Shown here in pieces: positions 3,147-4,546 of a stretch of DNA of 21,433 bases. The notes below the pieces were generated by a model, which saw only the letters and a program-made list of their open reading frames with translations, did not search any database and was not told where the DNA came from. Within the stretch, counting starts at the first letter, position 1. The number at the start of each line of letters is the position of its first letter. This stretch comes from a virus: UHGV virus genome UHGV-0131019. One strand, written 5' to 3'. The position numbers were made by a program, and so were the translations under genes.

Positions 3147-3599
3147 TTATATGTGGGGTAATATCCAGTTTATTTTCCTCCAGGTACTTGCAAATGAAAC
3201 TATTGATACGATCAGGGTCGAGAAACCATATAAGGTTAGGGCGAAATCAAGTCTTACAGAGGTAATGGTGATTTTTTCATTTATAAACATTGCTATCAGC
3301 GGGAAAATACATGCTAATATTAAGGTAACTCCCGTAGATAACAGGTTATGAATAATTTTAGGTAAAATCTTGTTTTGTTTTAAAGCAAAAATAATTCCAT
3401 CAGTACTTGAACTTGCAGAACTGAAGATGGAAATAGCGGCCAATACAAAACCAAACAAAATGCCTGCCACCGTAGATAACACTCCGGCTGTACTTAAGAT
3501 ATCAGAGTGAGCCATAGGCGCTAGGTATTTCCCAAGCACCCAAGCTAACAGCCCACTGATAACTATGTTAATTAAAACTTTAATAAGCATAATCATCAT
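3147..3599 (-). CDS. Small integral membrane protein, four predicted TM helices (RexB-like architecture)
   Basis: 150-aa ORF with four hydrophobic segments (~res 3-23, 37-60, 86-106, 119-140). AT-rich codon usage. Lies 14 nt downstream of, and co-directional with, the 310-aa ORF. Confidence 0.6.
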   Translation of the reverse strand: MMIMLIKVLINIVISGLLAWVLGKYLAPMAHSDILSTAGVLSTVAGILFGFVLAAISIFSSASSSTDGIIFALKQNKILPKIIHNLLSTGVTLILACIFPLIAMFINEKITITSVRLDFALTLYGFSTLIVSIVSFASTWRKINWILPHI

Positions 3600-3613
3600 C
3601 CTTAAAAATAAGA

Positions 3614-4546
3614 TCAGATTTCATATTGCTTTAAATACTGACCATGTTCAATTTTAGCACTGATCAAGGCAGTACGCACATCTGTTTCTTTTGCGTAGCC
3701 ATCTTTTGTGTTAATGTTTTTTTCACTGATCAGAACTTGATTGAGAAGACTCCTTGAATGAGTATTTTTAGGTTCAGTGACATTAGCTTTACGTAATAAG
3801 TGAGGAACTTTTTCTATTAATTCCTTTATTCCACTTTTTACTTCATCACTGAGATAACCACGGATTAATTTACGTTGCGATGCTCTACCTCTAAGTGATA
3901 GTTTTAAATGCGAACCGCCCATCCCAGCCATCATTTCAATCATACTTTTGGAAAATGAATTCGAAAGGTCATAATCCGTTGCGCTAAAATTACGTGGAGC
4001 GGCGAGTGTAATTTCACAGCTACGTAAAGTGCTTCCTGTTTCAAGTAGTTCTTTTACACTTTCTTTTTTCCAAATTGCCTCAAACGCTACAGGTTTGTTT
4101 TCTTCAGAAAAATTGAATAAAAGAAATGCTAAATCGGAAACTTTAGGTCCTAAATGATTTTGAGATAAAACAAGAATGTCTTTCTTATAGTAGTAAATAA
4201 AATAAGTGCGTTCGACTATATATTTTTTATCATCTAACGGAATATTGTGCTCATCCCAATTTTCATCACCAATATAAGGTAAGTGGAAACCATCACGAGA
4301 GCATGATAGATAACCAAAATAGAAATCCGCCTGTGCGTCTTTTTCTAAGAATACAATCTTTAATTTTTTCTTATCAAACTCAGCGGTATAAGAATTTTGC
4401 GAAGGTGTAACAATGGTTGTATACATGTTGTCAAATGCAAGTTGTGCATTTGATGTAGTTGACTTCGTTCCTGAGGAGCTTTGGAAGAAACCGATACGCA
4501 TTTTTTTTTGTTTAGTTAGTGGCGCGGAAGTGGCTGTAGTAGTCAT
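3614..4546 (-). CDS. Hypothetical soluble 310-aa protein, first gene of the leftward AT-rich island (RexA-like by architecture only)
   Basis: Long ORF on the strand opposite all flanking phage genes. Markedly AT-rich relative to the backbone. No recognisable catalytic motif. Possible SD (AAGGA/AGGGT) upstream of ATG at 4546. Confidence 0.6.
   Translation of the reverse strand: MTTTATSAPLTKQKKMRIGFFQSSSGTKSTTSNAQLAFDNMYTTIVTPSQNSYTAEFDKKKLKIVFLEKDAQADFYFGYLSCSRDGFHLPYIGDENWDEHNIPLDDKKYIVERTYFIYYYKKDILVLSQNHLGPKVSDLAFLLFNFSEENKPVAFEAIWKKESVKELLETGSTLRSCEITLAAPRNFSATDYDLSNSFSKSMIEMMAGMGGSHLKLSLRGRASQRKLIRGYLSDEVKSGIKELIEKVPHLLRKANVTEPKNTHSRSLLNQVLISEKNINTKDGYAKETDVRTALISAKIEHGQYLKQYEI

Follow-up and report, generated by a model that had tools for sequence, protein, structure and literature searches.

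A predicted RexAB-type gene pair of the DUF6731 family between the Q gene and the late leader of a lambdoid prophage

How RexAB senses an infecting phage and how RexA activates RexB are questions still standing some 70 years after Benzer's rII work. Five Rex-like systems have been described, those of lambda, Sbash, CarolAnn, Butters and Pseudomonas putida, and in four of them (lambda, Sbash, CarolAnn and P. putida) the membrane protein is the effector, Butters being the exception (Rosendahl et al. 2026). Here we analyse a two-gene island in a 21,433-nucleotide (nt) stretch of the virus genome UHGV-0131019 (the window, a mosaic lambdoid prophage segment with packaging and head genes after the lysozyme gene), in which a soluble protein of 310 amino acids (aa) and a membrane protein of 150 aa are encoded one after the other (Table 1). 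The two genes are very likely an undescribed relative of RexAB. With lambda RexAB, Sbash gp30/31 and the P. putida pair RexABpp taken as analogues, it is moderately likely that this island is a self-contained two-gene cassette of RexAB type, a prophage-borne moron that would exclude phages via its membrane partner; the anti-phage function of the pair is one that we infer from the same analogues. The pair represents a new sequence family, of predicted function, within the known RexAB kind and not a new kind of system.

In lambda, rexAB is part of the cI operon, whereas the present pair occupies the opposite strand in the interval from Q to the late leader; the intergenic gaps are alike (15 nt in lambda, 14–23 nt here). 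A location next to cI with co-expression of the repressor is found neither here nor in 72 of the 80 related loci described below, and is found in a distant member of the family in Pseudomonas phage AUS531phi. The Sbash pair is also displaced from its repressor, so that proximity to cI is not universal among the accepted Rex-like systems. Sbash gp30/gp31, and likewise CarolAnn gp44/gp43, form a two-gene module of a soluble protein and a protein with four transmembrane (TM) helices, like the present pair, although their hosts are actinobacteria, unlike those of the pair described here. The Sbash pair is expressed in lysogeny.

The DUF6731 protein and its membrane partner

The large protein contains no hydrophobic segment and belongs to the Pfam family DUF6731 (PF20505), which it matches over residues 12–273 with 43.6 bits (gathering cutoff 27; expectation value, E, 3.5e-11). 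The same family is matched by 89 of 98 diverse relatives, and an identical protein is labelled 'DUF6731 family protein' in RefSeq. It corresponds to phrog_7651 and the small protein to phrog_8552, both groups being of unknown function. The DUF6731-type family is small, since an exhaustive profile search (E <= 1e-3) of 1.84 billion proteins gave just 189 representatives at 50% identity. The predicted model of the large protein comprises a beta-alpha-beta5-alpha part (residues 11–157), a four-strand/three-helix middle domain (164–281) and C-terminal helices (287–308), an order of secondary structure that agrees with the domain plan of RexA (N-terminal beta-rich part, middle domain, C-terminal helices). 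As modelled, it is a cytosolic protein with the two-domain fold of RexA and RdgC, in which a four-stranded sheet/helix dimerisation domain is inserted into a split globular beta-sheet domain and a C-terminal helix returns to the latter.

A relationship to RexA was also sought by comparison of profiles, all of them built from shallow multiple sequence alignments. A diverse profile of 98 DUF6731 sequences aligned with a profile of 29 RexA-family sequences with an E of 2.7e-4 and a probability of 42% over 250 collinear columns, spanning query residues 17–306 and RexA residues 2–268. The segments 'GP..SDL..FL', the pre-hinge 'F.P[VI]L'/'IEPLM' and 'IDLIADRL'/'AADILTD' are in register in this alignment. 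RexApp of P. putida, which HHpred links to RexA at 98%, scored nothing against the same RexA profile, and the borderline value obtained for DUF6731 is therefore a conservative one. Homology of the large protein to RexA is held with good confidence at the level of the fold and is probable at the level of the sequence. RdgC (PDB 2OWL) and the kinetochore proteins IML3/CHL4/CENP-N scored far below RexA, have no membrane partner and belong to unrelated biology.

The small partner is a membrane protein built of four helices. The sequence-only reading of this island had paired a soluble protein of 310 aa with a four-TM protein of 150 aa, and both the hydropathy profiles (no hydrophobic segment in the former, four in the latter) and the AlphaFold 2 model of the latter, composed of four long helices with a predicted local distance difference test score of 82, bear out that pairing and topology. 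A length of about 145–190 aa, four TM helices and a gene immediately downstream of the RexA-like gene are the size, topology and position of a RexB-like protein, and all three are found here. Lysine and arginine are enriched in the N-terminus, in the central loop (three lysines) and in the C-terminus, and the positive-inside rule thereby suggests that both termini (N-in/C-in) and the central loop are cytoplasmic, an arrangement like that of RexB and gp31. In the family alignment the second TM helix (GILFGFVLA; GILFGFVLAAISIFSS) is the most conserved part of the protein, and residues G68, A72, L73 and K74 of the central loop are invariant or near-invariant. The conservation of this loop has a parallel in the central loop of Sbash gp31, where the changes R70A and D73A abolish defence (PMC6426596). 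A 165-aa Sbash protein was the second-best Foldseek match among viral models (BFVD), with a weak E of 0.045; it is equated with gp31 by its length (gp31 has 165 aa) and organism name only.

The start of the small gene differs between the open reading frame (ORF; 150 aa) and the RefSeq annotation (147 aa), and the ATG at 3590 is favoured because a ribosome-binding site, AAGGA, is placed 8 nt upstream. A MotA/ExbB-like proton channel was considered for this protein and rejected, all matches being sub-threshold and lacking structural support; the gathering threshold of MotA/TolQ/ExbB (PF01618) was not reached. The sub-threshold similarity recurs in 14 of 44 family members (best E 0.016, residues 31–111) and is not significant; the segment 'GVLSTVAGI' resembles the MotA/ExbB/TolQ motif.

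The family was set apart from the lambda, Sbash and P. putida pairs by direct comparison. Neither Sbash gp30 nor gp31 aligned significantly with its DUF6731-pair counterpart in hhalign, and shallow profiles gave no signal against the single sequences of lambda RexA, lambda RexB, Sbash gp30 and Sbash gp31. RexABpp (PP_5643/PP_5644) was recovered with a primer-derived probe (locus L017, IMGVR_UViG_637000222_000004, 573–2134), while one P. putida primer probe had no match in the genome or the viral contigs. Membership of RexABpp in DUF6731 was rejected: RexApp has no DUF6731 match, and hhalign of the pair against the DUF6731 and partner profiles was not significant. RexABpp corresponds to the PADLOC candidate PDC-M53A/B (E 8e-157 and 3e-72), and PADLOC is not mentioned in the main text of the RexABpp paper. 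That pair has been characterised experimentally, whereas the present module is known from its sequence and models.

Other searches returned noise only, namely phmmer and profile searches of PDB sequences and NCBIfam scans; among the latter, a match of Lart1 ADP-ribosyltransferase, which scored 16.6 bits where the cutoff is 500, was discarded as noise. Full-text literature searches with DUF6731, RefSeq/GenBank accessions and PHROG identifiers found no paper mentioning the family, and Rex goes unmentioned in two large defence screens published recently. A homolog of the large protein with 61% identity is labelled 'portal (connector) protein' in the records of phages vB_EcoS-733R5 and vB_EcoS-716R3 (ON470608.1, 30259–31176; ON470622.1, 15476–16393), almost certainly a misannotation.

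Conservation of the pair and its site in the prophage

Relatives of the pair were surveyed in 80 viral contigs of IMG/VR (44–100% identity), and in 78 of these loci the small gene lies immediately downstream of the large one on the same strand. The identities of the large and small proteins drop in parallel, from 63/54 through 48/55, 47/42 and 40/29 to 25/25%, across E. coli, Klebsiella, Vibrio and Pseudomonas, and the small partners are still recognised as homologous in Vibrio (hhalign E 9e-23) and Pseudomonas (1.5e-7). Judged from these sequences, the two proteins co-diverge and form one conserved module. Its host range covers phages of E. coli, Klebsiella, Yersinia, Pectobacterium, Vibrio and Pseudomonas. 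Three alleles with 47–63% protein identity to each other are present in 18, 25 and 73 of 5,426 complete E. coli genomes, so that about 116 of these genomes carry the pair; copies of any one allele share at least 99% identity.

The surroundings of the module vary. In 72 of the 80 loci the pair is convergent to the Q gene and is bordered on the opposite side by a methylase, a P21-type holin or a lambda-type holin gene; phage cdtI carries it in the equivalent slot. In a Klebsiella element it is placed between primase and tail genes, in a Vibrio tectivirus-like element it adjoins the integrase gene, and in AUS531phi it follows directly downstream of an S24-type CI repressor gene on the same strand, the position of cI-rexA-rexB. 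In the Klebsiella element (locus L013) an Imm_superinfect gene (PF14373; 5013–5336) is found on the opposite strand about 660 nt from the pair, two putative exclusion functions being clustered there. In AUS531phi (locus L016, MN585195) the annotation begins the small gene at a GTG (3713), giving 118 aa and three TM helices; the ATG at 3584 (to 4069) gives 161 aa with an additional N-terminal hydrophobic segment and an overlap of about 98 nt with the upstream DUF6731 gene, and the gene as annotated is probably truncated at its start. A comparable overlap, of 41 nt, exists between genes 30 and 31 of Sbash.

In the window the two genes run leftward and all neighbours with family matches (RusA, KilA-N, DUF968, Q, DNA methylase, P21-type holin, DUF1327 and lysozyme) are on the plus strand, as described in the sequence-only reading. 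The AT-rich character noted there is equally clear: the fraction of guanine plus cytosine (GC) is 0.352 in 3147–4546 and 0.514 in the remainder of the window, and the profile falls to 0.32–0.37 over about 2850–4650. This drop and the three alleles on shared flanks are consistent with the horizontal acquisition that had been proposed. A lower GC was seen in every Rex-type pair examined, with values of 0.40/0.43 in lambda (locus L004, 1026–2315) against 0.45 in cI, 0.45 in the P. putida pair against 0.60 in its flanks, 0.62 against 0.67 in Sbash and 0.35 against 0.51 in the present cassette.

Table 1. Positions of the gene pair, its flanks and adjoining signals in the window
Feature	Position	Strand	Description
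Antiterminator Q gene	2726..3103	+	Left flank of the slot; PF06530, E 3.7e-52
GC-rich hairpin	3118..3143	.	Stem of 10–11 bp; flanked by the convergent ends of Q (stop at 3103) and of the small gene (3147)
rexB-like gene	3147..3599	-	150 aa (probably 147 aa), four-TM inner-membrane protein; ORF, hydropathy, AlphaFold 2, phrog_8552
rexA-like gene	3614..4546	-	310 aa, soluble, DUF6731, predicted RexA/RdgC-type two-domain fold
AT-rich cassette-specific upstream region	4547..4642	-	Ribosome-binding site AAGGG ahead of the ATG at 4546
Conserved backbone segment	4643..4725	+	Right flank of the slot; 82–98% conserved in loci with other cassette alleles
DNA methylase gene	5200-6252	+	Family match

The boundaries of the cassette are visible in phages that carry other alleles or unrelated cargo. 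On the left, the sequence shared with them falls within Q; on the right, homology to the window resumes at 4622 in cdtI, at 4643 in the locus of the 47%-identity allele and at 4669 in PhiR40_1, which places the insertion between Q and the late leader. From lambdoid gene order the conserved segment on the right would be the late-promoter/leader region (PR'/tR'), a reading suggested by its being kept even in phages where the holin gene comes directly after it. It is closed by a terminator-like hairpin with a run of seven T at 4706–4725, the fold energy of which is unexceptional (z = -0.9); the hairpins at 4641–4655 and 4706–4718 are thermodynamically unexceptional as well. In contrast, the hairpin between the convergent stops has a predicted RNA folding energy of -15.5 kcal/mol (z = -5.65 for the minus and -2.86 for the plus strand) and is probably a two-way transcription stop, although no clean U-tract follows on the minus strand.

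Within the slot equivalent to 3104–4668 of the window, PhiR40_1 (locus L005, PV340560) carries on its minus strand (1992–2438) a gene for a 148-aa putative lipoprotein (…IISGC) without Pfam family. This gene is leftward and unrelated to the cassette, its flanks are near-identical to those of the window, and the site between Q and the late leader can therefore be regarded as a hot spot of cargo exchange. Stx phages carry the stx genes in the interval from the leader to the lysis genes. The sequence-only reading had assigned the pair to that Q-to-lysis moron slot; a variable cargo site beside Q is upheld by the 72 convergent loci with their varied late neighbours and by the PhiR40_1 lipoprotein, but the cassette lies upstream of the late leader and hence outside the interval where stx sits.

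Elsewhere in the window, an ORF of 67 aa (4846–5049, plus strand; MLKQQDMTETAAAV…) located between the leader terminator and the methylase gene has no Pfam family and carries the annotation of a conserved hypothetical protein (WP_000917724) in E. coli as well as in the phages cdtI and PhiR40_1. Positions 1–1005 and 1124–6314 are 98–99% identical to the prophage at tRNA-Thr/proA of E. coli NJS001, and the late regions differ: those of the window encode a P21-type holin, DUF1327 and ORFs of 700 and 526 aa, sized like the GpA-type terminase and portal in locus L009, and the NJS001 prophage encodes a lambda-type holin together with a P27-family terminase and a tail sheath. A minus-strand ORF at 8339–8629 was considered as a Bor/Iss homolog and rejected.

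Proposed mechanism and competing readings

By analogy with the described systems, the lysogen would express the pair from a leftward promoter of its own, without any need for Q. An infecting phage would be sensed by the soluble protein (probably a dimer that binds DNA), which would then activate its membrane partner, and this partner may depolarise or permeabilise the membrane; the loss of membrane potential or integrity would stop growth and abort the infection. The promoter of the operon would lie within 4547–4642, where ATCACA-17-GATAAT at 4589–4561 (9 of 12 matches) is a candidate. A RexAB-type exclusion cassette is supported by the position after cI in AUS531phi, the linkage in 78 of 80 loci, the co-divergence of the two proteins, the low GC and the variable cargo slot on the opposite strand. 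The RexA/RexB-like architecture recognised in the sequence-only reading has found support in the full-length, collinear, if weak, profile alignment to the RexA family, in the four-TM partner and in the cI-rexA-rexB position of the AUS531phi pair.

Several results weigh against this assignment. The lambda models of RexA (PF15969 and PADLOC RexA; structure PDB 8TWQ) and RexB (PF15968 and PADLOC RexB) had no match at E <= 1 to the large and the small protein, respectively, in libraries in which lambda RexA itself scores 1e-97 and 9e-110 and PADLOC detects both lambda RexA and RexB. Neither protein matched any of the 5027 models of PADLOC-DB 2.0.0 at E <= 1, and the Pseudomonas and Vibrio homologs of the large protein had no match there at E <= 0.01. 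The probability of the profile alignment to RexA is low, and a shallow DUF6731 profile found nothing in the RexA alignment (probability 0.8%). There is no detectable similarity between lambda RexB and the small protein: the hhalign comparison gave a probability of 0.2% (not significant), and lambda RexB is missing from the top 50 Foldseek matches in BFVD, where four-helix bundles match generically. The promoter scan of the upstream region yielded no more sites than shuffled sequences, and none that was convincing. Literature searches turned up no experimental data on a DUF6731 member, and the exclusion of T4rII by lambda could itself be a by-product of Rex expression (Adams et al.). The comparison with RexA/RexB and with defence families that the sequence-only reading had proposed is thus divided, with a RexA/RdgC fold in the model and a borderline profile similarity on one side, and no match to the Pfam RexA and RexB models or to any PADLOC model and an undetected RexB on the other.

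The position of the cassette, abutting the conserved late-leader segment here and adjoining cI in AUS531phi, would also suit a RexA-fold protein that mainly regulates the development of its own phage (induction or late transcription), with a membrane partner restraining it and exclusion as a secondary effect. Lambda RexA, a non-specific DNA binder, biases the bistable CI-Cro switch toward lysis independently of RexB, which antagonises it. However, the cassette travels among unrelated backbones (lambdoids with different Q alleles and late regions, the primase-bearing Klebsiella element and the Vibrio tectivirus-like element), so that a portable accessory function fits better than a regulator of a single switch, and the strict linkage of the two genes and the low GC are typical of cargo; a mainly regulatory role is unlikely. 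That the RexA-fold protein, divergent to the late promoter/qut, modulates Q-dependent late transcription or prophage induction in addition to serving as a defence sensor is an improbable proposal; if true, the Rex fold would be a general 'developmental switch tuner', acting on cI-cro in lambda and AUS531phi and on Q-PR' here.

The order of events could be reversed as well, as in Butters, where gp30, a cytosolic protein, acts as the effector and defence can do without gp31 (Rosendahl et al. 2026): the soluble protein would then be toxic and the membrane protein would sequester it until infection releases it. The sequence data do not separate the two logics, but conservation in the small protein is highest in a TM helix, which suggests an activity within the membrane rather than a mere anchor, and in four of the five described systems the effector is the membrane protein, so that we give this reversal little credence. 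The RexA fold, finally, is common to RdgC and to kinetochore proteins of other roles, and its likeness here might come without functional equivalence, the pair doing something else for the lysogen, for instance as a membrane protein that blocks DNA injection (classical superinfection exclusion) with an RdgC-like modulator of recombination or DNA metabolism, or as an addiction module resembling toxin-antitoxin systems. The Imm_superinfect gene beside the Klebsiella homolog and the failure of any PADLOC defence model to match would agree with such a role, to which we assign a small chance. Phage exclusion by a RexAB-type cassette acting through its membrane partner is the reading that we prefer.

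Significance for Rex-type systems

The result gives a probable identity to Pfam DUF6731 and to its unnamed four-TM partner, and adds a sixth, highly divergent Rex-like lineage, resident in E. coli itself. PADLOC-DB 2.0.0 (2023), the only library of defence models used, does not detect the family; should its function be confirmed, surveys of this kind count too few Rex-type systems. Candidate conserved positions for the old question of sensing and activation are offered by the pre-hinge motif and the 'IDLIADRL' motif of the large protein and by TM2 and the central loop of its partner. The mapping of escape mutants and comparison across families are feasible, since the host is tractable and large coliphage panels exist. 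The presence of three alleles with 47–63% identity in one slot raises the question whether allelic variation sets the specificity for target phages. With its predicted function, the pair may thus serve as a tractable E. coli model, endowed with natural allelic variation, for a long-standing mechanism.
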